Part shown: in pieces, positions 18,685 through 63,344 of the stretch
How the letters are laid out: the number at the start of each line of letters is the position of its first letter
Numbering within the stretch: the stretch's first letter is position 1
Source of the DNA: an uncultured Gammaproteobacteria bacterium
GTDB lineage: Bacteria; Patescibacteriota; Microgenomatia; CAYGWK01
DNA length: 64,000 nucleotides
Direction: 5' to 3'
Assembly (NCBI GenBank): GCA_964353785.1
Contig: CAYGWK010000004.1
Coordinates: forward strand, 22,730-86,729
Notes under the pieces: generated by a model
Databases searched by the model: none
The model's input: only the letters and a program-made list of their open reading frames with translations
Told to the model about the DNA's origin: nothing
Translations under genes and position numbers: made by a program

Positions 18685-18758
18685 GGGCACGTAGCTCAGC
18701 TGGTTAGAGCGCGATTCTTATAAAATCGAGGTCCCTGGTTCGAGACCAGGCGTGCCCA
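18685..18758 (+). tRNA. tRNA-Ile with anticodon UAU (TAT)
   Basis: Manual cloverleaf: acceptor GGGCACG/CGTGCCC, D-arm TAGCTCAGCTGGTTAGAGC, anticodon stem CGATT/AATCG with loop CTTATAA, T-arm CCTGG-TTCGAGA-CCAGG; CCA not encoded. Confidence 0.8.
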
Positions 18759-18759
18759 C

Positions 18760-20054: not shown

Positions 20055-20127
20055 CGCGGGGTAGTGTAAAGTTGCACGGAAGGCTCATAATCTTCCAGCC
20101 TGGGCGCGATTCCCAGCCCCGCAACCA
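20055..20127 (+). tRNA. tRNA-like sequence with CAT anticodon and noncanonical T-loop (possible degenerate/unusual tRNA)
   Basis: Cloverleaf foldable by hand: acceptor CGCGGGG/CCCCGCA with C1:A72 mismatch, anticodon loop CTCATAA, T-loop CGCGATT lacks T54-T55-C56; encoded CCA; abuts the next tRNA with zero spacer. Confidence 0.35.
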
Positions 20128-20199
20128 GGCAGCGTAGCTCAGTGGTAGAGCGGTATCTTCATAAGATAATGGTCACAGGTTCAAATCCTGTCGCTGCCA
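20128..20199 (+). tRNA. tRNA with CAT anticodon (elongator Met or lysidine-type Ile2)
   Basis: Acceptor GGCAGCG/CGCTGCC, D-arm TAGCTCAGTGGTAGAGC, anticodon loop TTCATAA, T-arm ACAGG-TTCAAAT-CCTGT. Confidence 0.8.
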
Positions 20200-20202
20200 C
20201 TA

Positions 20203-42839: not shown

Positions 42840-43805
42840 ATGTACGACTTAATAATCGTAGGCTCCGGACCTGCCGGAATGACGGCTTCAATTTATGCTT
42901 CTCGTTATCGCCTTAAGCATCTCGTGATTGGCAAAACCCATGGTGGTGAGATGGCGTTGGCGGGTAGAGTGGAAAATTTCCCAGGATTCAAAAGAATTTC
43001 AGGGGCGGAATTAGCCAAAAAAATGGTTGAGCACGCCCAAGATCAAGGAGGAGAGATTATTTCGGCAACGGTTATTGGGGTGAAGCAGTCAGGGGGAGAA
43101 TTTGAGGTTAGAGACGATAGTGGCAAGACTTACCAAACTAAAACCTTAATTATTGCCTCGGGCACCGAGAGGAAAAAATTAAATATTCCTGGTGAAGCGG
43201 ATTATGTTGGCAGGGGAGTTTCTTACTGCGCTATCTGCGACGGACCCTTATTTAAAGATAAAACCGTGGCCGTCATTGGCGGTGGTAATGCCGCTGTTGG
43301 TGGGGCAATTCAAATAGCAGATTATACTAAAAAAATTTATCTAATTTATCGCCGAGAAAAAGAAAAAATGCCAGCCGATCCGGCCTGGAAGGAAGAATTT
43401 GAGAAAAAATTAAAAGAGGGGAAAATTGTTGACATTTACCAGACTAATTTAACAGAAATTAAGGGCGATGGTCAAAAAGTAATAAGCATTATTTTGGATA
43501 AGCCTTATCAAGGAAGTAATGAGATTGAGGTTGACGGAGTTTTTATTGAGGTTGGTTCTGTTCCCGCGACCAATTTAGTCAAAAATCTTGGAGTAGAAAC
43601 GAGCGAGGCTGGCTATATTAAAGTTAATCCGGACCAATCAACTGGTTGTCCAGGAATTTTTGCCGCCGGGGACATTACCACCGGCTCTGGCGGGATGCAG
43701 CAAATTGTCACCGCCGCGGCTGAAGGAGCAATTGCCGCTGCCTCGGTTTATCAATTTCTTCACCAAGGAGAAACTCCCGCCCCATCCTGGGGCAGAAAGC
43801 CTTGA
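42840..43805 (+). CDS. trxB: thioredoxin-disulfide reductase
   Basis: GSGPAG FAD motif, redox-active CAICDG, GGGNAA NADPH motif. Confidence 0.9.
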   Translation: MYDLIIVGSGPAGMTASIYASRYRLKHLVIGKTHGGEMALAGRVENFPGFKRISGAELAKKMVEHAQDQGGEIISATVIGVKQSGGEFEVRDDSGKTYQTKTLIIASGTERKKLNIPGEADYVGRGVSYCAICDGPLFKDKTVAVIGGGNAAVGGAIQIADYTKKIYLIYRREKEKMPADPAWKEEFEKKLKEGKIVDIYQTNLTEIKGDGQKVISIILDKPYQGSNEIEVDGVFIEVGSVPATNLVKNLGVETSEAGYIKVNPDQSTGCPGIFAAGDITTGSGGMQQIVTAAAEGAIAAASVYQFLHQGETPAPSWGRKP

Positions 43806-43982
43806 CAGGGTCGTGACAGGGTTCGTCCCTGTCAGACCCGTTTGACAAAAGCCTATAAAATGGGTAAAATTCTGGCAAATCCTAAAAAATCTGTCCAAGA
43901 TACAGCATCTTGGGCTTTGCAGGTTTTTGTAGGAGATTGTTCTTTGAGAATTGAGGGTGGAGAATAAAAAGGAGGGAAGAGG

Positions 43983-44207
43983 ATGGCTGAAGCCATACGG
44001 GCATTTGGGACGCTCGGTGGAGGTGCTCAGATCTTGGTGGTAGTGATGGTGATAGCAGTGGCAGCGGTTGTGGAATCTGTTATGGGAAACTTCTTCAGAT
44101 TTCTCACAGAATGCTGCCGTACTTATCGCCATTATCGTCCGCCAGACAAACCACCAAAAGAAAAAAAGCCAGGCCGCTCTCGGGTGGCTGAAAAAGGCGC
44201 TCCTTGA
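43983..44207 (+). CDS. small TM protein in GC-rich islet
   Basis: 74 aa, strong RBS AAAGGAGGG, single hydrophobic helix, basic Pro/Lys tail. Confidence 0.4.
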   Translation: MAEAIRAFGTLGGGAQILVVVMVIAVAAVVESVMGNFFRFLTECCRTYRHYRPPDKPPKEKKPGRSRVAEKGAP

Positions 44208-44235
44208 GAGCTAGAAATCTAGAAGGAGGTAAGAA

Positions 44236-44400
44236 ATGTTGGATTTAGATGAGCGGGGTCAGGGCTCGATCAGACTGCTGGTTGGGGATTTGCTAACCCT
44301 CTTTCTCATTCTCTGTCTCGCCGCTGTCGTTATCGCCATGATATGGGTAGTCCTCGGACCTGACATCCAGAATGTCTGGGGTCGCCTGACAGCTCCTTAA
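44236..44400 (+). CDS. small TM protein in GC-rich islet
   Basis: 54 aa, strong RBS AGAAGGAGG 7 nt upstream, one long hydrophobic helix; not in the ORF track (below size cutoff). Confidence 0.35.
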   Translation: MLDLDERGQGSIRLLVGDLLTLFLILCLAAVVIAMIWVVLGPDIQNVWGRLTAP

Positions 44401-44414
44401 CGGAGACGCAAGAC

Positions 44415-44462
44415 GGGGCGGTAATATAGTCTTAAATAGTGGGTTTGAATCCCACCCGCCCC
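44415..44462 (+). other. tRNA-like minihelix (acceptor stem + T-arm only)
   Basis: GGGGCGG...GTGGG-TTTGAAT-CCCAC-CCGCCCC: a perfect 7-bp acceptor stem and canonical T-arm with only 17 nt between. Confidence 0.4.
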
Positions 44463-44533
44463 CTTCTTTTCTCCACCCTCTCTTTTTCTTAGGCTTGACA
44501 TTAGGAGAGTTTGGTGGTAGGATACCGAAAGTT

Positions 44534-44719
44534 ATGGCAAAGCTGCCTCAAGTTGATAAAGGAACTTGTATTGGGTGCGGAACCTGCACGGTTTTAGCCC
44601 CAAAGACATTTAAACTTGGAAAAGACGGAAAAGCAGAGGTAATCAACCCGCCAGGGGATGAAGAGGAAAAGATTAAAGAAGCGATTGATTCTTGCCCGGT
44701 AAACGCTATTAAATTATGA
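44534..44719 (+). CDS. small ferredoxin-like Fe-S protein
   Basis: CIGCGTC...CP cysteine pattern in a ~60-aa protein. Confidence 0.65.
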   Translation: MAKLPQVDKGTCIGCGTCTVLAPKTFKLGKDGKAEVINPPGDEEEKIKEAIDSCPVNAIKL

Positions 44720-45300: not shown

Positions 45301-45339
45301 TTTTGCAGGAAAGTGGTTTTAAATTCCCGCCAAAGGCGG

Positions 45340-45510
45340 GATTTTTTTGTGTTTTGCGACTTAAAGAGTTCGGGTATGAACTTGTTGCTTGGTTTCGTCA
45401 TGGCATCCCCGCACCAATTCTGGTGCGGGGTCGCCCTCGGATTCTGAAATCCGAAAGTCGAGTTGTGTTTCGGAGTCCTCGGGCTTGCCAGGTGAAACCT
45501 GCGCAAAAGT
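45340..45510. repeat. GC-rich noncoding repeat element, copy 2 (candidate structured RNA)
   Basis: Conserved blocks shared with 12745-12905; internal hairpins GCACCAATTCTGGTGC and CGGATTCTGAAATCCG. Confidence 0.5.
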
Positions 45511-45588: not shown

Positions 45589-45861
45589 ATGGCTCATACC
45601 ATCGTCCATCACCTTTTTATTGCTTTTAGGGCGATTGTGCGGGGTTTGGTGCTTTTAGCAGTCTGGATTGCGGTTTCCTTAACTGGACTCTTTTTCTGGA
45701 GCCAATTTTCCTCACCAATAAATCTTATAATCGGCGGACCTTTGTTTTTAATTGGGGTGATGATGGGTTTGTCTACCTTATACGAGACAACTGTCGGGAT
45801 TATCTCCTGGCGGTGGGGGAAAACCCATTGTCCTTTTTGCCAGAATAAGGCTTCTTCTTGA
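45589..45861 (+). CDS. small membrane protein, hypothetical
   Basis: 90 aa, two TM helices, C-terminal CPFC. Confidence 0.4.
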   Translation: MAHTIVHHLFIAFRAIVRGLVLLAVWIAVSLTGLFFWSQFSSPINLIIGGPLFLIGVMMGLSTLYETTVGIISWRWGKTHCPFCQNKASS

Positions 45862-46457: not shown

Positions 46458-49400
46458 ATGACTGCCCAAGAAAAATTAAAAATTCTTCATAAAGTTTTAA
46501 AAGAAGGTTCTTCGGTTTCTTCTGTGTGTCGCCAAAACAAAATTTCCCGAAAAACTTTTTATTTTTGGAAGAAAAAATATTTATCCGCTGGGCCGAGGAA
46601 TAAGACATCTTGTTTGGAGAAACGCCATTTAAGAGGCCTACAGCATCCCAGAGGCTTAAAGCTTCGCTTTAAAAAAGACATTTTGAGGCTAGCAACACTT
46701 CACCCAGAACTTGGGAGCCACTCTCTTAGCAAAATCTTAAAAGAAAAAGACAAATTTTTGTCAAATCACGGGGTCTATACCTTATTAAAAGAGTTAGGTC
46801 TTGAAACTAGAGAGAAAAGAAAAGAATTTGCAGGTTATTATCGTAGTCCGTTAAGGCTTTTACCAGAGACGAGGAAGCGATTGGTGGAGGAGGTTGTCCT
46901 GGTTGGCAGAGGAATAAGTGAGGCAGCCAGAGAATATAAAGTTAGCCGGAAAACGCTTTGGAAATGGGCAAAAAGGTATAAAAAAGCCCAGGAAGCGCAG
47001 ATTGAGCTTGTATTGGCTCTCAAGGACCAAAATCCAACTGGCTCGGCTCATCCTCGAGGAACACCGGAATGGCTGGAAAGGAAGATTTTGGAGCATGTGG
47101 TTCGAAATCCAGAATATTCAACTCATAAATTAGCCCAAATTATTCCTCAAATCGGCAATCATGGGATACAGAATGTTTTATTTCGAAATAGTTTGAACAC
47201 TTTTGATAGGAGACTGGAATATGCTCGAATTCATGCTCCTGTTTCCCTAGTGCAACCAATCACTGGCTGGTTGGATCGCTTGCGAAGCGTCTGGCAGACT
47301 TTTGTTCCGACTATCGCTCCCGCTCCTCCCCCCAAGCTAATCAAACCTTTTTTGCTCTCCCTAGGGTCTTCTTCAGCTTTAGCTCTTCTTTTTCTTCTCT
47401 GGCTTCAGATGTTTTCTGGACAATCACTTTCTAGTAAATTAGGTCTATTTTCTGCTTCAATTTCTTTATTTGTTGGCTCTCTCTTTTTCTTATATTCAAT
47501 GAAATATTACTTTACTTTGGCAATAGTGCTCTCCTTTTCAAGTCAAACAGGACCCTTCGACTCCGCTCAGGGTAAAGAATCAGGAGAACAGGGAATGAAA
47601 GGCTGGTTAGCCAGAATATTTGGGAGAAATGGAGAGTGGAGAATGGAGAATGGAGAAAAACTTATTGCTGGAGGACTTCAACCAAACCTGGAACATATAA
47701 AGCTCAAGCGTTATCCTTTTATCTCTGTCCACCTACCTTTTTATAATGAGAAGAAAGTGGCCGAGCGGATTTTATCTGCCTGTACTTCTTTTGATTACGA
47801 GAACTATGAAGTAGTGGTCATTGATGATTCAACTGATGAGACGACGACCATTGTTCAGCGGTTTGCTGATCAATGGAATAAACAAATAAATACCAATAAA
47901 CCAATGATTAGAGTCATTCACCGTCCAACTCGGCAAGGATTTAAGGGTGGAGCCCTTCGGGAAGCCTTAAAACACACTAATCCCAAAGCCGAATTTATCG
48001 TTGTCTTTGATGCTGATTTTATACCGTACCCGGATACGCTGGAATTATTTATTAAGTATTTCAAAGTAAATAACAATGGTTCAGAAGACTACATTAAAAA
48101 CAATGTTGCCGCTGTTGCCGGATACCAGTGGCATGTTTTGAATAAATCAGAGAATTGGATAACCAGGGGAGTGAGAACAGAATATTCAGGCAGTTATGTC
48201 ATTGAAAGACCTGGACAGGAGATTTTAGGGGCAATGAAACTTATTCATGGTTCAGTTTACGCCATAAGAAGCGATCTTTTAAAAAAGATTGGTTGGGGAA
48301 CTTCAATTACCGAAGATTTTGAATTAACCCTTCGACTATACGCTCAGGGCTACAAAGTCATTTACACTCCTTATATTCAAGGACCGGCAGAGTGCGTCTC
48401 AACTATCAAGCGTTTAATCCGCCAAAGAATGCGTTGGAGCGAAGGACACTCACATTGTGTAAAGAAGATGTTTTTAAGGCTCCTTAGCACTCCTCGCATG
48501 AATTTGCCAGAAAAACTGGAATTCTTATACATCTCTCCCTACTATCTTCAGGCTTTTTTCTTTTTAGTGGGAACTTTTTCCTGGCTTTTAGCGGAAACTG
48601 TTTTTCGCGCCCGACTGCCTTTCTGGACCTCTTTATGGGGCTGGAGTTTGGTTTTAACCAATTTCTTTGCCCTACCTTTAATGAATGCCGTTGGTTTATT
48701 TTTGGAGGAAGCCGAGGAGAAAGACTATTTAGGTCTTTTGTCTTTTGTTGCCCTTTCCTATATTTTAGTTCCTTTTCAAGCCTATGCTTCAGTTAAAGGC
48801 TTTTTGGAAAAACAAGAAGGACCTTGGTTTCGGACTCCAAAAACAGGCTTAATTACTGATATCTTCACCCGAGGAAAGTTTTATCGCTGGATTTCGGGGA
48901 TTATTCCCGGGCGCATAGCGCCCGCGATGAGCACAGATATCAGTGCTAATCCCTATCTCGCTTTGGCGACGGCCAATAATCAGTTTAATCAATTTAAAAT
49001 CAGGCGCCGGCATTTAAAATGGGTGGGAAATTTAAGCGTGGTTGGAGTTAGCTTGATGAGTATTATTTTACTGATGATGGCCCCTCTTATTCCCCTTGCT
49101 TCTGCTCCAGCCTCGGCTCAAACAGGCGGTTTTAGAAGTCTTAAAAATGCTGTTCCTTCTTCCCAGGTAAAATTGGCGAAGGAGGTAATCGAAAGCCCGG
49201 TCAATGTCAGTTATGAACTGGGTGAGGGCAGTTTGGAATATATTTTTCATCCTGAACCAAGGGTGAGAGTCAAACTAGGCAATAAAGAAATAGAAACCAG
49301 GGTGGCTAAATCTGACGGCGGGGGCAATCCGCTTCCAGAAAAGGCTTACAAGGAGGGAATCATTTATACTTATCGGGAAATTTTTGAAGGTGTTGATCTC

Positions 49401-50954
49401 CGTTATATAGCTGATATCGAAAAGCTAAAAGAGGAATTTATTCTTAATGAAGATAGAGAATTTGAATCAGTTGAGATGGAAGTTAGATTAACCGGTTTGG
49501 TTTTAGCCCAGGTTGGAGAAGAGATTCAAGTTGCTCCAGCAGAAGGAGGCGAGTCTTTGTTTTATTTCCAAAAACCCTATCTTTATGAAGAGAAAAATCC
49601 GGAAAATAAAAGCCAGGGAATTAAATACGAGATGGAAAAAAGTCAATTTGGCTGGAGGATAAAGAAGGTTTTAACTGATGAGGGAAAAAACTGGCTATCA
49701 GATCCTGCCCGAGATTTTCCGGTGGTTCTTGACCCGACTTTGGTTAAATCAAATGTAGAAGCTTCAGGGATGACAGATGTTGAAACAAGATATCCGGGCA
49801 TTAACCGAAAGATTGCCTATGTTTCCGGTACCGTCGATGGAGCCGCTTGGTACGTAGTGCACGCCAACGGTAACCAAATAATTTATAGGCGTTGTTTGGT
49901 AAGCTCCGGCTGTAATGAAGACGGTGACTGGTCGGCCGCTCAGGATATTGACGATGATGCTTCTGCCAACCATGTTGCCCCCACTCTTTATTATAAATCA
50001 GCAGATAGGCTTTGGGTCGGGTGGACAGATAATTCCGGTGCTGATCCTGATGACACTCTCCATCTTCGTTACATTGATACCACGAGCTCCTTTCCGCACA
50101 GTTTGGGAACGCATTGCGAAACGCTTGATTTAGGGACTATTGGCGGAAACTTCAATACGATTTTTGCTGTTGGCGATAACAGCCATGCGGTTATCGGGAC
50201 CCAGTGTCTTGAAGGAACAGGGACGACATCTTATCTTGTTGATATGAATACTTCGGATTGTACTTATGTATCTATTTTGGCCGGCAGCGGAATGGAAAGC
50301 GGAGTGACAGATTTAGCTGCTTCTGCCGTTGCCCTGGGAAACAATATTAGTATTATCTATGAAGACAACGGACCTACGCCCGATGATTTACGCCATAGTG
50401 TTTATGATGTTTCTACGGGCGTGTGGGACAGTATTGATAACGATGTTGACGGCGCGGACAATATCGACGAAGCGGAGGATTTTTCTGTGACAACCGATGG
50501 AACCAGCATTTGGGTTTTGGCGGTTGATGGGACAACGGATACTGATTTTTTCCGCTGCAGCAGCTGTTTGGACACCGCTCCTTCCTGGACGCAGTCTGAT
50601 GAGATTCCTTGGAGCGGGCAATCAAACGTGACTGAAGCTTCCTTGACTTATATTTCAGGAACAAGCAGTCTGGCTGCTTTTGTGATGAAGGATACCACCA
50701 ACGAGCAAGTTTATACAAAGAGTACTCTTATCGGTACAATTTCCTGGGGGACGGAGTATTCGCTCAGTTATACTGCTGGTACCAATGGCAATCTTTCTTC
50801 GGTGATGAGTGTTGCCAGCGAAGATGATATTGGTGTGGTGATTCTTGAAGGAGTAGCCTTGCGTTTTTCTACCATTCCGGAAAATAGTTTGATTTTTCTA
50901 ATTCTTGCCCCATTTTTGCCTGGAGTAATTAGGAAATTGAGAAGGTATAATTAA
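46458..50954 (+). CDS. giant fusion protein: duplicated transposase-like HTH N-terminus + processive GT2 (cellulose-synthase-like) + large extracellular C-terminal domain
   Basis: Two N-terminal HTH modules (ISRKTFYFWKKKY; VSRKTLWKWAKRY) each followed by a GNHGIQNVL-type segment; GT2 motifs HLPFYNE..., DADF (DxD), TED (TEDFELTLR), QRMRW (QxxRW); ~600-aa S/T/D/G-rich ectodomain; C-terminal IPEN-TM-RKLRR tail. Confidence 0.75.
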   Translation: MTAQEKLKILHKVLKEGSSVSSVCRQNKISRKTFYFWKKKYLSAGPRNKTSCLEKRHLRGLQHPRGLKLRFKKDILRLATLHPELGSHSLSKILKEKDKFLSNHGVYTLLKELGLETREKRKEFAGYYRSPLRLLPETRKRLVEEVVLVGRGISEAAREYKVSRKTLWKWAKRYKKAQEAQIELVLALKDQNPTGSAHPRGTPEWLERKILEHVVRNPEYSTHKLAQIIPQIGNHGIQNVLFRNSLNTFDRRLEYARIHAPVSLVQPITGWLDRLRSVWQTFVPTIAPAPPPKLIKPFLLSLGSSSALALLFLLWLQMFSGQSLSSKLGLFSASISLFVGSLFFLYSMKYYFTLAIVLSFSSQTGPFDSAQGKESGEQGMKGWLARIFGRNGEWRMENGEKLIAGGLQPNLEHIKLKRYPFISVHLPFYNEKKVAERILSACTSFDYENYEVVVIDDSTDETTTIVQRFADQWNKQINTNKPMIRVIHRPTRQGFKGGALREALKHTNPKAEFIVVFDADFIPYPDTLELFIKYFKVNNNGSEDYIKNNVAAVAGYQWHVLNKSENWITRGVRTEYSGSYVIERPGQEILGAMKLIHGSVYAIRSDLLKKIGWGTSITEDFELTLRLYAQGYKVIYTPYIQGPAECVSTIKRLIRQRMRWSEGHSHCVKKMFLRLLSTPRMNLPEKLEFLYISPYYLQAFFFLVGTFSWLLAETVFRARLPFWTSLWGWSLVLTNFFALPLMNAVGLFLEEAEEKDYLGLLSFVALSYILVPFQAYASVKGFLEKQEGPWFRTPKTGLITDIFTRGKFYRWISGIIPGRIAPAMSTDISANPYLALATANNQFNQFKIRRRHLKWVGNLSVVGVSLMSIILLMMAPLIPLASAPASAQTGGFRSLKNAVPSSQVKLAKEVIESPVNVSYELGEGSLEYIFHPEPRVRVKLGNKEIETRVAKSDGGGNPLPEKAYKEGIIYTYREIFEGVDLRYIADIEKLKEEFILNEDREFESVEMEVRLTGLVLAQVGEEIQVAPAEGGESLFYFQKPYLYEEKNPENKSQGIKYEMEKSQFGWRIKKVLTDEGKNWLSDPARDFPVVLDPTLVKSNVEASGMTDVETRYPGINRKIAYVSGTVDGAAWYVVHANGNQIIYRRCLVSSGCNEDGDWSAAQDIDDDASANHVAPTLYYKSADRLWVGWTDNSGADPDDTLHLRYIDTTSSFPHSLGTHCETLDLGTIGGNFNTIFAVGDNSHAVIGTQCLEGTGTTSYLVDMNTSDCTYVSILAGSGMESGVTDLAASAVALGNNISIIYEDNGPTPDDLRHSVYDVSTGVWDSIDNDVDGADNIDEAEDFSVTTDGTSIWVLAVDGTTDTDFFRCSSCLDTAPSWTQSDEIPWSGQSNVTEASLTYISGTSSLAAFVMKDTTNEQVYTKSTLIGTISWGTEYSLSYTAGTNGNLSSVMSVASEDDIGVVILEGVALRFSTIPENSLIFLILAPFLPGVIRKLRRYN

Positions 50955-61891: not shown

Positions 61892-63344
61892 GATGCTAAA
61901 AAATAGCCGACCAATCTTTAAGTTAACCTTTCTCTTTTTTATTGCCAGTCTTCCTTTATTCTTGAGTTCAAGCATTTTCTTTTTAAAAGACCCGCCGGTT
62001 TGGCCAGATGAGGCCTTTATTTTGGATACGGCAGAAACCTTTAACCAAACAGGAGAGTTAGCGACGGATATTTTTGGGGCGGCCGGCATGGGTCTGGAAA
62101 AACAAGCCCTTTGGTATCCACCGCTTTATTTTTATACTTTAGCGGCCTGGATTAAAGTTTTTGGGTCAACCATCGAATCAACCAGGTTTTTATCACTTTT
62201 ATTGGCCTTCTTTGCCCTCGCCCTCGTTTTCTTCCTGATAAGAAAAATGTTTAAAGAAAACTTTTTGGCGGTTTTGGGGACGGCTTTGGTGGCTTTTGAT
62301 ATCAGTTTTGCCAGCTCGGCCCGGATGGCCCGGATGGAAATGCTGTGCTTTTTTTTCCAAATGGTTTCTCTGGTCATCTTTTATCTTATTGAACAAAGGA
62401 AAGAGAAACGATATTTTGCCTATCTTTTCGTGGGCGTGTTTTCGAGTTTGGGGATACTGACTCATCCTTTGGGATTAATCTTGCCGGCAGTCATTTTCGT
62501 TTACCTTCTGTTCGTTGGCGGTACGCTTAAAGAAAGAGTCTTAAAAGGTTTTTTGATTGCCTTGCCCATGGTTTTATTCATCGGGAGTTGGCTTTTGAGC
62601 ATCAGAGACTGGTGGGATTTATTTCTTCTCCAAAACAAACTTCAGTTAGCGAGAAAAACCTTATTCCAACCTTATATCTGGGTTCTTTTCTCAAATATTC
62701 TTTCTTGGCGATTGTTGTTTGTGCTTAATGGAGCGGTTTTTTATGGTTTGGTGAGGTTAGTCGTTAAGTATAGAAAAAAACCTGATATTTTGTTGTTTTT
62801 AGGACTAATTATTTCCACCGCTGTTCTTATTTGGGGAAAAGAAAGTTGGTATACGTTATATTTTCAACCCTTTATTGCTTTAGCTATCCTGACCATATTG
62901 AAGAGAGCAAAAGAGGATAAAGAATGGTTAATTTTTAAAAGCACGGTCTTCATTATCATTTTATTATTTTTAATTAATGGGTGGTTATATTGGGAGACAT
63001 GGCAAAAAAGAGGGAGAGGTAATTATGATTACCATGATTTAACACAAAGAGTGGCCAGGGTTTTACCCAAACAGGGCAAAGTCTTTTTAGCGGCCATCCC
63101 TGATCCTTATTATGACCTTAAAAGAGAGAGCCAATTAGAGTTTTTTGAATTTTCAACAGTTCCCGTATCTGATGAAGTCTTCCAAAGAGTCTTAGACTCT
63201 TCTGACTACATTGTTTTCTGGATTTTAGATAAGAGGATTATTGAATATGTTGATCGTAATGCGGAGACGGAAACAGCGATTCAACAGCCAAAAGGGTATA
63301 AGGTGCTCGTGATTAAGCTTGTCCCACAAGATAAAAGGCGATAA
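61869..63344 (+). CDS. GT-C-family glycosyltransferase, PMT/ArnT (GT39/GT83)-like
   Basis: First periplasmic loop with WPDEAF (DE motif), ~11 TM helices, soluble C-terminal domain. Confidence 0.55.
   Translation: MKSLRFSEMLKNSRPIFKLTFLFFIASLPLFLSSSIFFLKDPPVWPDEAFILDTAETFNQTGELATDIFGAAGMGLEKQALWYPPLYFYTLAAWIKVFGSTIESTRFLSLLLAFFALALVFFLIRKMFKENFLAVLGTALVAFDISFASSARMARMEMLCFFFQMVSLVIFYLIEQRKEKRYFAYLFVGVFSSLGILTHPLGLILPAVIFVYLLFVGGTLKERVLKGFLIALPMVLFIGSWLLSIRDWWDLFLLQNKLQLARKTLFQPYIWVLFSNILSWRLLFVLNGAVFYGLVRLVVKYRKKPDILLFLGLIISTAVLIWGKESWYTLYFQPFIALAILTILKRAKEDKEWLIFKSTVFIIILLFLINGWLYWETWQKRGRGNYDYHDLTQRVARVLPKQGKVFLAAIPDPYYDLKRESQLEFFEFSTVPVSDEVFQRVLDSSDYIVFWILDKRIIEYVDRNAETETAIQQPKGYKVLVIKLVPQDKRR

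Follow-up and report, generated by a model that had tools for sequence, protein, structure and literature searches.

A probable accessory cassette encoding two small predicted membrane proteins between trxB and a ferredoxin gene in a Microgenomates genome

The islet between trxB and the ferredoxin promoter

The stretch of DNA analysed here (64 kb, referred to below as the window) belongs to a Microgenomates (CPR) genome and includes a redox gene cluster in which about 650–690 bp of additional DNA, at about 43835–44490, separate trxB from the promoter of a ferredoxin gene. Identical DNA occurs in assemblies of the sequencing runs ERR4334734 and ERR4334736. This segment, which we call the islet, has SDR, trxA, trxB, ferredoxin and Trx-like genes as its neighbours, with no mobility or phage genes in the islet or in the adjacent genes and no lysis, export or maturation genes among the neighbours. 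A sequence-only reading had described a GC-rich islet at 43806–44470 with two small ORFs, flanked by hairpins and a tRNA-like minihelix, and all the features that it listed are present in the window (Table 1).

Table 1. Features of the islet and its flanks, in window coordinates.
Feature	Position	Strand	Remarks
CTCCCGCCCCATC in the last trxB codons, candidate left direct-repeat copy	43773..43785	+	Matches the right end of the L003 islet
TTGACA overlapping the trxB stop codon	43802..43807	+	Position of the putative ancestral ferredoxin -35 box
Putatively ancestral palindrome TGACAGGG-TTCGT-CCCTGTCA, extended by GGGTC/GACCC	43808..43839	.	Outside the insert
Predicted islet promoter TTGACA-17-TAAAAT	43842..43870	+	11/12 consensus matches; best site in the scanned region
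Leader hairpin CCAAGAT-ACAGC-ATCTTGG	43895..43913	+	Present in the window, L003, L019 and L052
Invariant leader block TTGTTCTTTGAGAATTG	43937..43953	+	Near-invariant, one G/T position, in 4/4 leader variants
Purine-rich block and ORF1 SD (AAGGAGG, 43969-43975)	43953..43975	+	85% complementary to 44461-44480
ORF1, predicted 74-aa single-pass membrane protein	43983..44207	+	From the ORF listing; homologs in L003 and of the DG_75 type
Long imperfect hairpin inside ORF1	44034..44157	+	-53.6 kcal/mol, z -4.9
Conserved stem GCTCTC/GAGAGC between ORF1 and ORF2	44176..44211	+	Both arms kept in L003, loop differs
ORF2 Shine-Dalgarno site AAGGAGGT	44223..44230	+	8-nt match, 5 nt ahead of the ATG
ORF2, predicted 54-aa single-pass membrane peptide	44236..44400	+	Variable cargo slot
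"tRNA-like minihelix" (44415-44462) and U-rich tract CTTCTTTTCT	44415..44472	+	Read as the islet's intrinsic terminator
Tandem 17-mers CCGCCCCCTTCTTTTCT / CCACCCTCTCTTTTTCT, right-end pyrimidine tract	44456..44489	+	Complementary to the leader purine block
Ferredoxin promoter TTGACA-17-TAGGAT	44495..44523	+	Flank, outside the insert; ATG 10 nt past the -10 box

The islet is present in some lineages and absent from others. It is missing in L004 and L015, where the trxB stop codon leads directly into the ferredoxin promoter and where TrxB is 87% and the Trx-like protein 80–81% identical to the proteins of the window, and it is missing in L012-14, where trxB and the ferredoxin gene are likewise still adjacent; in L012-14 and L011 the palindrome alone lies between trxB and the ferredoxin promoter. 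The sister lineage L003 (run SRR16352835) carries the islet with the same right junction as the window. Because close relatives run trxB straight into the ferredoxin promoter, the islet is probably a lineage-specific insertion, as the sequence-only reading had proposed, and the distribution among relatives agrees with that proposal. Since ORF1 is carried by three lineages only, an alternative to insertion is ancestral presence of the islet followed by repeated loss and one local rearrangement. The left boundary of the insert falls between about 43790 and 43848, where there are three overlapping candidate flanking repeats, and no clean target-site duplication was found around it.

The hairpin directly downstream of trxB (GACAGGG-TTCGT-CCCTGTC at 43815–43833, with a further GACAGGG ahead of it at 43804–43810) folds well (-25 kcal/mol, z -4.7), has no other copy in the 64-kb window and is not followed by a U-run. 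It had been taken for a boundary element of the islet, a role that does not fit its occurrence in L011 and L012-14, which lack the islet and in which 4 nt separate it from the ferredoxin -35 box downstream. From this comparison the palindrome is probably older than the islet and belongs to the ferredoxin promoter region, with the insertion having landed beside it. In L004, L015 and L019 the ferredoxin -35 box, TTGACT, contains the trxB stop codon TGA, and the ferredoxin promoter itself is kept in L003, L004, L011, L015, L019 and L051.

Both the composition and the translation signals of the islet are atypical of the window, as had been claimed and as would suit inserted DNA. The GC content is 49.2% over 43806–44470 and 48.5% over about 43835–44490, against a window mean of 40.7%; among segments of its size across the 64 kb the islet stands at the 99th percentile (z 2.7). 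The rise in GC does not form a clean block, as the promoter and leader (43836–43982) have 39.5% GC and the increase begins in the 3' end of trxB. The GC3 of ORF2 is 0.58, compared with 0.36–0.41 in the flanking genes. A Shine-Dalgarno (SD) match is absent from 38 of the 50 long ORFs of the window and reaches at least 6 nt in only two of them, whereas the two islet sites are 7 nt (ORF1, 7 nt ahead of its ATG) and 8 nt (ORF2) long, the latter being stronger than that of any other start examined in the window. Within the ORF2 SD region, GAAGGAGG is kept in L003, where it precedes a different ORF.

The two ORFs and their leader

That the islet carries two small ORFs for single-TM peptides is upheld, each of the two predicted products having one hydrophobic stretch. 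The predicted ORF1 protein consists of a short N-terminal helix, a long hydrophobic helix, a Cys-Cys pair and a basic disordered tail; AlphaFold2 models helices at residues 2–9 and 13–51, in effect one long helix, with a mean pLDDT of 65, which is too uninformative for a fold search. Homologs of ORF1 occur in L003 (84% identity) and in Microgenomates loci of the DG_75 type (33–35%), and searches of 5.8 billion clusters and 1.84 billion representatives, and with a 3-sequence profile, returned only the proteins of the window, L003 and the DG_75 type. Across these homologs the length varies from 64 to 74 aa, and the tail is basic in the window and acidic in L019. The DG_75 homolog lies elsewhere in the same gene cluster, in the intergenic region that separates the Trx-like gene from a 7TM_transglut gene, and this site is empty in L017, L012 and L004.

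ORF1 is under purifying selection. In the comparison with L019, in which synonymous sites are saturated, the first 16 codons give a pN of 0.235 and a pS of 0.72, 14 codons show synonymous changes only, and the N-terminal sequence MAExIRAFG persists despite 4 synonymous changes among its 9 codons; the other reading frames across ORF1 contain stops. Judged by its DG_75-type homolog and these substitution patterns, ORF1 is a real coding gene. A comparison of L052 with L019 was set aside as a selection test, as it shows a mosaic or chimera (80%, then 100% identical). Between the window and L003 the nucleotide identity is 95–97% over the leader and the 5' half of ORF1, compared with 82% in the ferredoxin gene, with synonymous changes in 2 of 50 codons as against 23 of 62. 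The long hairpin inside ORF1 pairs the arm coding for the membrane helix with the arm coding for the tail; L003 retains this hairpin (z -3.2), and L019 lacks it (z -1.0).

ORF2 is known from a single sequence, a search of 5.8 billion clusters having recovered only itself, and its place in L003 is taken by an unrelated ORF of 66 aa with two hydrophobic segments. The conserved stem between the two ORFs is part of a coding sequence in the window but not in L003. An assignment of ORF2 as a Flp or class III pilin was rejected, no Pfam model being reported at E<=1.

Upstream of ORF1, the leader hairpin shows changes in L003 that give G:U pairs on the + strand only, and the leader block TTGTTCTTTGAGAATTG is near-invariant even though the ORF1 proteins that follow it are only 35% identical. 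The block occurs only beside ORF1 homologs, with no further copies in the 64-kb window, and the motif is written as TTGTTCTTTGAKAATTG. The leader alone is no more stable than shuffled sequences (z -0.6, -0.4 and +0.3). A reading of the block as a promoter (TTGTTC-17-GAGAAT) was discarded, since the resulting transcripts would lose the SD site in the window and the spacing shifts in L003.

The minihelix at the right end

The element that had been described as a tRNA-like minihelix combines a perfect GGGGCGG/CCGCCCC stem with a GTGGG-TTTGAAT-CCCAC arm (-21.1 kcal/mol, z -3.1) and lies 15 nt past the ORF2 stop codon and about 25–30 nt before the next -35 box, that of the ferredoxin gene. The tract CTTCTTTTCT follows directly after the end of the stem at 44462 and consists of a U-tract interrupted by C residues. 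In L003 the homologous segment is a plain long GC hairpin with a U-run and without a T-loop, in which the 3' strand of the stem, CCCGCCCC, and the U-tract are conserved, and the cassettes of both L003 and L019 close with a GC hairpin of a different shape and a U-run behind it. The minihelix is thus a GC stem with a U-rich tract at the end of the unit, with equivalents in L003 and L019, and was missed by a terminator pattern scanner solely because of the scanner's loop limit of 8 nt. It is most likely the intrinsic terminator of the islet, as predicted from these features, its resemblance to a tRNA acceptor stem and T-arm being incidental. Like known Rho-independent terminators with branched or long stems, it has a GC-rich stem and a U-rich tract past the last stop codon and before the next promoter, and its stem sequence varies from ortholog to ortholog, with the 3' strand and the U-tract retained; it differs from them in that the upper part of the stem has the dimensions and loop of a tRNA T-arm and in the C residues interrupting the U-tract.

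The earlier proposal that the minihelix is a tRNA fragment marking an integration site finds no backing in these comparisons. The three tRNAs that ARAGORN detected in the window all lie elsewhere, and at the minihelix it called neither a tRNA nor a tmRNA; no Rfam family was found in the islet at gathering scores, and there is no tRNA gene at the empty sites of L004, L015, L012-14 and L011. A full-length tRNA homologous to the minihelix had also been envisaged, and its stems are shared by none of the four tRNAs in the window and the relatives' loci. A second copy of the minihelix is absent from the 64-kb window, as is an exact minihelix 22-mer from viral contigs. For comparison with tRNA 3' halves, the segment reads GTGGGTTTGAATCCCACCCGCCCC. 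There remains the reading of the minihelix as a functional tRNA mimic, giving an mRNA 3' end that is cut by RNase P or RNase Z or has CCA added, or as a decayed tRNA gene. A 7-bp stem abutting a hairpin of 5 bp with a 7-nt loop is expected 0.66 times per window by chance and the same with a T-loop-like loop only 0.005 times, and this rarity leaves room for a real tRNA-mimic role; the fold is stable, and a permissive Rfam search gave a local alignment to tRNA-Sec over acceptor and T-arm positions. We nevertheless regard such a role as very improbable, as the tRNA-Sec match, the best tRNA match, scores 14.7 bits (E 8.8), well short of the gathering score of 47, ARAGORN is silent, the loop has a T in place of the near-invariant tRNA C56, no CCA follows, the U-rich tail comes at once as in a terminator, the shape is lost in L003, and neither the empty sites nor the accessible tRNAs offer a source. 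The permissive Rfam matches (mir-598, snoZ188 and tRNA-Sec) were dismissed as noise, the weak mir-598 match arising from the long hairpin in ORF1, and an interpretation as the acceptor piece of a two-piece tmRNA was dropped for want of a match to any tmRNA family. For those who scan genomes, the element is a warning that a terminator can convincingly resemble a tRNA minihelix.

A probable accessory cassette and competing readings

Taken together, the islet is probably an autonomous, moron-like accessory cassette that was inserted between trxB and the ferredoxin promoter. A near-consensus sigma-70-type promoter, the conserved leader, ORF1, ORF2 and the intrinsic terminator follow one another in an order that would make up one transcription unit, from which two strongly translated small single-pass membrane proteins would be made, one conserved and the other exchangeable. 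That promoter and terminator work, and what the proteins do, is what we infer; our best guess is an accessory or selfish module whose two peptides act in the membrane, where ORF1 may be an anchored effector, with mRNA structure keeping its translation low, and ORF2 may be its variable partner. Cassette-like behaviour is seen in the ORF1 homolog at the second intergenic site of the DG_75 locus and in the swap of ORF2 in L003. As in phage morons, the islet has its own predicted promoter and terminator, is present or absent between otherwise collinear genomes, differs in composition from its surroundings and carries small cargo with no role in the flanking genes, but it lies in a bacterial redox gene cluster and not in a prophage, and no phage gene, PHROG family or viral contig matches it. 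AcrZ, MgrB and CydX are small proteins that modulate larger membrane complexes and are usually co-transcribed or co-regulated with a known partner; the islet products resemble them in being single-pass peptides of 50–75 aa without an enzymatic domain, and differ in that no partner is evident and in that the gene is dispensable in close relatives. Nothing relevant to such a cassette was found in the literature.

The predicted islet transcript folds unusually strongly (z -4.1), an observation that a plain accessory-gene reading leaves unexplained. The purine block of the leader, including the ORF1 SD, has complementary pyrimidine tracts within ORF2 and at the 3' end, and in silico the ORF1 SD is mostly paired (unpaired probability 0.09–0.36). 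The duplex between leader and 3' tail reaches -41.6 kcal/mol, compared with -25.8 +/- 3.8 for shuffles, in a control that used mononucleotide shuffles only on tracts of low complexity; it beats the shuffles in all three lineages, and a 2-nt insertion in the L003 leader extends the helix to 14 perfect base pairs. On these grounds the islet could be a type I toxin-antitoxin-like locus and selfish module, in which ORF1 or ORF2 would be a membrane-damaging peptide, the folding and 5'-3' pairing would hide the SD and silence translation in the manner of hok or aapA1, the antitoxin would be an unseen small RNA, and the cassette would persist and spread. Both ORFs are small hydrophobic orphans behind a strong predicted promoter of their own, the distribution is sporadic, over two different intergenic sites, and a weak antisense promoter (9/12) with a terminator-like site faces the start of ORF2. 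This promoter is lineage-specific, however, and no minus-strand promoter of at least 8/12 was found opposite ORF1 or the leader in the window, L003 or L019 (a promoter scan being weak evidence of absence), so that antisense small-RNA promoters opposite the peptide ORFs, which the sequence-only reading had pointed to, are not conserved. Its suggestion of type I toxin, holin-like or bacteriocin-immunity cargo likewise draws no support from homology, as searches of Pfam, PHROGs, NCBIfam, PADLOC and PDB sequences with the islet ORFs gave no matches. ORF1 and its homologs, moreover, are longer than most type I toxins and have a tail of variable charge, the complementary 3' tract falls in large part downstream of where termination is expected, the register of the tract pairing is not kept in L019, and neither is the long hairpin of ORF1. 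The hok/sok and aapA1/IsoA1 (Helicobacter) systems, whose type I toxin mRNAs are under fold-back control, resemble the islet in having a small hydrophobic peptide behind a strong promoter, a highly structured mRNA, a patchy intergenic distribution and predicted long-range pairing between the ribosome-binding region and the 3' end; the islet differs in its two cistrons, its longer ORF1, the lack of a detected antitoxin RNA and ORFs without sequence similarity to known toxin families. On balance we consider the toxin-antitoxin reading unlikely. The strong folding, the high GC content in an AT-rich genome, the internal hairpin and the excess of identity to L003 over the leader and 5' half of ORF1, with its few synonymous changes, could also point to a structured non-coding RNA in which both ORFs are accidental. 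We judge this extremely improbable in view of the protein-level selection on ORF1 against L019, the stops in its other frames, the perfectly spaced strong SD sites of both ORFs, the failure of Rfam families to match and of the hairpin to persist in L019, and the possibility that the excess identity reflects recent recombination, a similar switch from 80% to 100% identity being seen between L052 and L019.

The repeats around the islet would be accounted for by a CIME-like remnant that entered the 3' end of trxB and lost its integrase, with CTCCCGCCCCATC and AGSCTTGACA as attL/attR-like duplications; the right-hand repeat copy would now serve as a strand of the terminator. The match between CTCCCGCCCCATC and the right end of the L003 islet extends over 13/13 positions and was equalled by 0 of 2000 dinucleotide shuffles (p<0.0005), AGCCTTGACA at 43798–43807 is repeated as AGGCTTGACA at 44491–44500, 693 bp apart and flanking the insert, a tandem 17-mer lies at the right end, and the islet is foreign to the window in its composition. 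The right-end copy in the window itself, CCACCCGCCCCCTTC (44452–44466), is weak, however (p 0.076), and AGSCTTGACA contains TTGACA, a functionally constrained -35 box whose repetition is to be expected. The DG_75 cassette site has no flanking repeats, the palindrome is already found in islet-less relatives, no integrase or mobility gene occurs in the islet or nearby, and homolog searches found no related element; nothing in viral contigs or in phage and plasmid collections matched the islet DNA, its leader motif, the minihelix or the profile of ORF1. We therefore hold a CIME-like origin to be improbable, and continue to prefer an accessory cassette.

CPR bacteria have tiny genomes in which little accessory or selfish DNA is known. 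A more far-reaching version of the toxin reading, which we put forward as speculation and think quite unlikely, is that the islet represents a hitherto unrecognised family of transposase-less mini-cassettes in CPR/Patescibacteria, each with a conserved leader, a gene for a small membrane peptide and a 3' end that folds back, that act as hok- or aapA1-like loci and relocate between intergenic sites, with translation gated by 5'-3' mRNA pairing and the exchangeable second peptide as a partner. To our knowledge, no toxin-antitoxin-like, RNA-controlled selfish module has been described before in these ultra-small bacteria, and this would, if true, be the first; should a membrane toxin indeed be gated by the structured mRNA, type I toxin-like biology would extend to Patescibacteria. 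At present the islet is an orphan small-protein locus of modest interest. Its absence from relatives whose TrxB is so similar shows how tiny CPR genomes still gain genes, a picture to which the ORF1 homolog at a second site of the same cluster adds.

The islet between trxB and the ferredoxin gene

The GC-rich islet between trxB and the ferredoxin gene is best explained as a lineage-specific, self-contained accessory cassette that encodes two small membrane proteins and ends in an intrinsic terminator. It sits in a redox cluster (SDR, trxA, trxB, ferredoxin and a membrane-anchored Trx-like CPHC protein) of a Microgenomates-type CPR bacterium, whose DNA recurs identically in two further samples (L001, L002) and for which Microgenomates bacterium DG_75 is the closest named relative as far as the ORF1 family is concerned. 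The sequence-only reading had described a tandem hairpin just past trxB with GACAGGG before it, two short ORFs (ORF1, 74 aa; ORF2, 54 aa) with unusually strong Shine-Dalgarno (SD) sites, and a 48-nt tRNA-like minihelix, and all of these were recovered. ORF1 and ORF2 have SD matches of 7 and 8 nt, respectively; among 50 long ATG-ORFs of the window only two have a match of at least 6 nt and 38 have none within 20 nt upstream (an approximate count, with a crude choice of starts), which suggests that translation in the source genome normally starts independently of an SD. The high GC content was also borne out (48.5-49.2% vs 40.7% for the window, the 99th percentile), but not a switch at the hairpin, as the rise begins within trxB and AT-rich sequence makes up the promoter and leader. 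Between the two promoters follow a leader of ~105 nt, ORF1, ORF2 and the minihelix with its tail CTTCTTTTCT, an order that reads as one transcription unit with a predicted promoter and terminator. A 164-aa ORF antisense to the trxB 3' end and the 5' half of ORF1 is probably spurious, arising from G-rich sense codons.

Features of the islet and its surroundings (window coordinates unless a locus is named)
Feature	Position	Remarks
tRNA-Ile (anticodon TAT) and two directly abutting tRNA-Met(CAT)	18685-18759 and 20055-20200	tRNA-Met pair: first 45.8, second 70.8 bits
trxB	42840-43805	TGA stop within TTGACA hexamer 43802-43807
164-aa ORF	43638-44132	minus strand
GACAGGG	43804-43810	ahead of left hairpin
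Left hairpin GACAGGG-TTCGT-CCCTGTC	43815-43833	43808-43839 when GGGTC/GACCC added; -25 kcal/mol, z -4.7 (folding)
Palindrome	43808-43839; L011 695-714; L012 3144-3165
Insert proper (estimated)	about 43835-44490
Islet promoter TTGACA-17-TAAAAT	43842-43870	near-consensus, 11/12 matches; ahead of both ORFs
Minihelix	44415-44462	48 nt
Ferredoxin promoter TTGACA-17-TAGGAT	44495-44523	serves ferredoxin gene; kept region 44495-44536
Ferredoxin gene	44534-44719
Replacement segment	45300-46458	~1.1 kb; clean terminator 45325-45341 and AT-rich tract
90-aa ORF	45589-45861	two hydrophobic segments, Cys-x2-Cys end
1498-aa ORF	46458-50954
Second nested element	63288-63335	minus strand

The comparison with related genomes proposed in that reading found the islet in the sister lineage L003, which has ferredoxin-specific residues in common with the window and the same right junction, and found it missing from L004, L015, L012-14 and L011. 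In L004 and L015 (TrxB 87% identical to the window) the ferredoxin -35 box contains the trxB stop, as in L019, a DG_75-type locus, and both islet and hairpin are absent from L004 and L015. The junction in L012-14 (Trx-like protein 80%, TrxB only 55% identical) is just the palindrome TTGACAGGGTTACACCCTGTCA, 4 nt before the -35 box, and L011 (Trx-like protein 81% identical) has the palindrome GGCAGGGTTCGACCCTGTCA with no trxB upstream. These junctions argue that the islet is an insertion, and the palindromes of L011 and L012-14 that the hairpin is older than the insert; proposed as an islet boundary, it belongs instead to an older part of the ferredoxin promoter region. Three overlapping repeat pairs make the left limit of the insert uncertain. 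CTCCCGCCCCATC lies in trxB and agrees with the right end of L003 at 13/13 positions, a score reached by 0/2000 shuffles, while the window's own right-end copy is weaker (p 0.076); AGCCTTGACA and AGGCTTGACA form a pair spaced by 693 bp; and TTGACA is present at both 43842 and 44495. An orphan small-membrane-protein cassette acquired via insertion is a familiar kind of thing.

ORF1, its leader and the ORF2 slot

Judged from its codons, ORF1 is a real gene, although very narrowly distributed, its family consisting of only three clusters among billions of proteins: those of the window, of L003 (84% identical) and of DG_75-type genomes (a 64-aa protein, 33-35% identical). Between ORF1 and the DG_75 homolog pS is saturated at 0.73 and pN is 0.235 over the first 16 codons, the N-terminus MAExIRAFG is retained despite four synonymous changes in nine codons, and stops interrupt the other frames. 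AlphaFold2 predicts a short N-terminal helix, a single long helix and a disordered tail. This tail has a basic character in the window and an acidic one in DG_75, and one Cys and one Tyr are conserved past the membrane helix. The DG_75-type homolog occupies a different site, intergenic between a Trx-like gene and a 7TM_transglut-ATP-grasp cluster, which is empty in L017, L012 and L004. The leader accompanies the gene at both sites and contains a hairpin, CC(A/G)AGAT...(A/G)TCTTGG, that tolerates G:U pairs on the plus strand only, followed by a near-invariant block TTGTTCTTTGA(G/T)AATTG and then AAAGGAGG. None of the libraries searched describes either the family or its leader. The ORF2 position, on sequence comparison, is a variable slot: L003 has a conserved SD region and then an unrelated 66-aa ORF with two hydrophobic segments, a protein cluster search found no relatives of window ORF2 anywhere, and its GC3 is 0.58 vs 0.36-0.41 for flanking genes.

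The minihelix, RNA structure and competing explanations

The idea headlining the sequence-only reading, that the minihelix is a tRNA remnant, did not survive: neither tRNA nor tmRNA detectors call it, no tRNA gene lies at the relatives' empty sites, and its stems are shared with none of the four accessible tRNAs. Its loop has T where C56 of a tRNA is expected, and CCA is absent downstream. In the homologous segment of L003 the 3' strand CCCGCCCC and the U-tract are preserved and the 5' strand and loop are changed; its fold is simply one long hairpin. A large GC hairpin followed by UUUUUU closes the DG_75 cassette. The minihelix is best read as a predicted intrinsic terminator with a chance likeness to a tRNA minihelix. 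The bare architecture is expected by chance at 0.66 per window, and with a T-loop-like loop at 0.005 per window; because the latter is so rare, a functional tRNA mimic keeps a small probability, although we consider it very unlikely. The sole other element of nested shape in the window is AT-rich, with a 7-bp outer stem abutting a 5-bp hairpin whose 7-nt loop, CTTCGGA, has no T-loop likeness.

The predicted islet transcript folds far better than shuffles (z -4.1), most of the excess coming from a hairpin of ~125 nt within ORF1 (z -4.9) that pairs the arm coding for the membrane helix with that coding for the tail, and that is retained in L003 and missing in DG_75. A purine block including the ORF1 SD has complementary pyrimidine tracts within ORF2 and immediately beyond the terminator, and this SD is predicted to be mostly paired. 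Leader/tail duplexes exceed mononucleotide shuffles in 3/3 lineages, the tracts being of low complexity and part of the 3' tract lying past the likely termination point. Window and L003 are 95-97% identical over the leader and first 50 ORF1 codons (two synonymous changes in 50 codons) vs 82% over the ferredoxin gene (23 in 62), a contrast that constraint at the nucleotide level or recent recombination could explain. Sharp identity switches do happen within the group: between the DG_75-type loci L052 (1-370) and L019 (4322-4692) identity is 80% in the Trx-like gene and 90% in the ORF1-like leader, then 100% over >1.2 kb, which points either to recombination with its breakpoint at the cassette or to a chimeric assembly.

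We tentatively favour an accessory or selfish module that would act in the membrane, the translation of its first cistron, ORF1, being restrained by mRNA structure. The architecture resembles that of a phage moron, but the islet lies outside any phage. The main rival explanation, a type I toxin-like locus, is improbable; antisense small-RNA promoters opposite the peptide ORFs had been suggested as a check, and a promoter scan of the islet against homologous cassettes found no conserved one. An integrase-less remnant of an integrated element ranks behind it and is more doubtful still, and a pure non-coding RNA, set beside the coding signature of ORF1, is barely credible.

The ferredoxin promoter and the downstream region

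The palindrome, TGACAGGG-N5-CCCTGTCA, stands 4-7 nt upstream of a TTGACA -35 box at several Microgenomates loci, in L011 between divergent genes, and its arms include the -35 hexamer itself in both direct and inverted orientation. Since no U-run comes after it, an operator or DNA-level element seems a likelier reading than a terminator. The ferredoxin promoter, TTGAC(A/T)-17-TAGGAT, is kept in the window, L003, L004, L011, L015, L019 and L051, and its ATG lies only 10 nt past the -10 box, implying a predicted mRNA that is leaderless or nearly so.

Further downstream, the Trx-like gene and a giant glycosyltransferase are separated in the comparison loci L004, L012, L017 and L019/L051 by a 7TM_transglut gene and three ATP-grasp/RimK-like genes. 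These genes are entirely absent from the window (tblastn negative), where the replacement segment takes their place. The 1498-aa ORF that follows combines N-terminal helix-turn-helix (transposase-type HTH) segments, a membrane-embedded family-2 glycosyltransferase and a long C-terminal region, an architecture likewise annotated in DG_75-type contigs (Pfam HTH_Tnp_1 and Glycos_transf_2).
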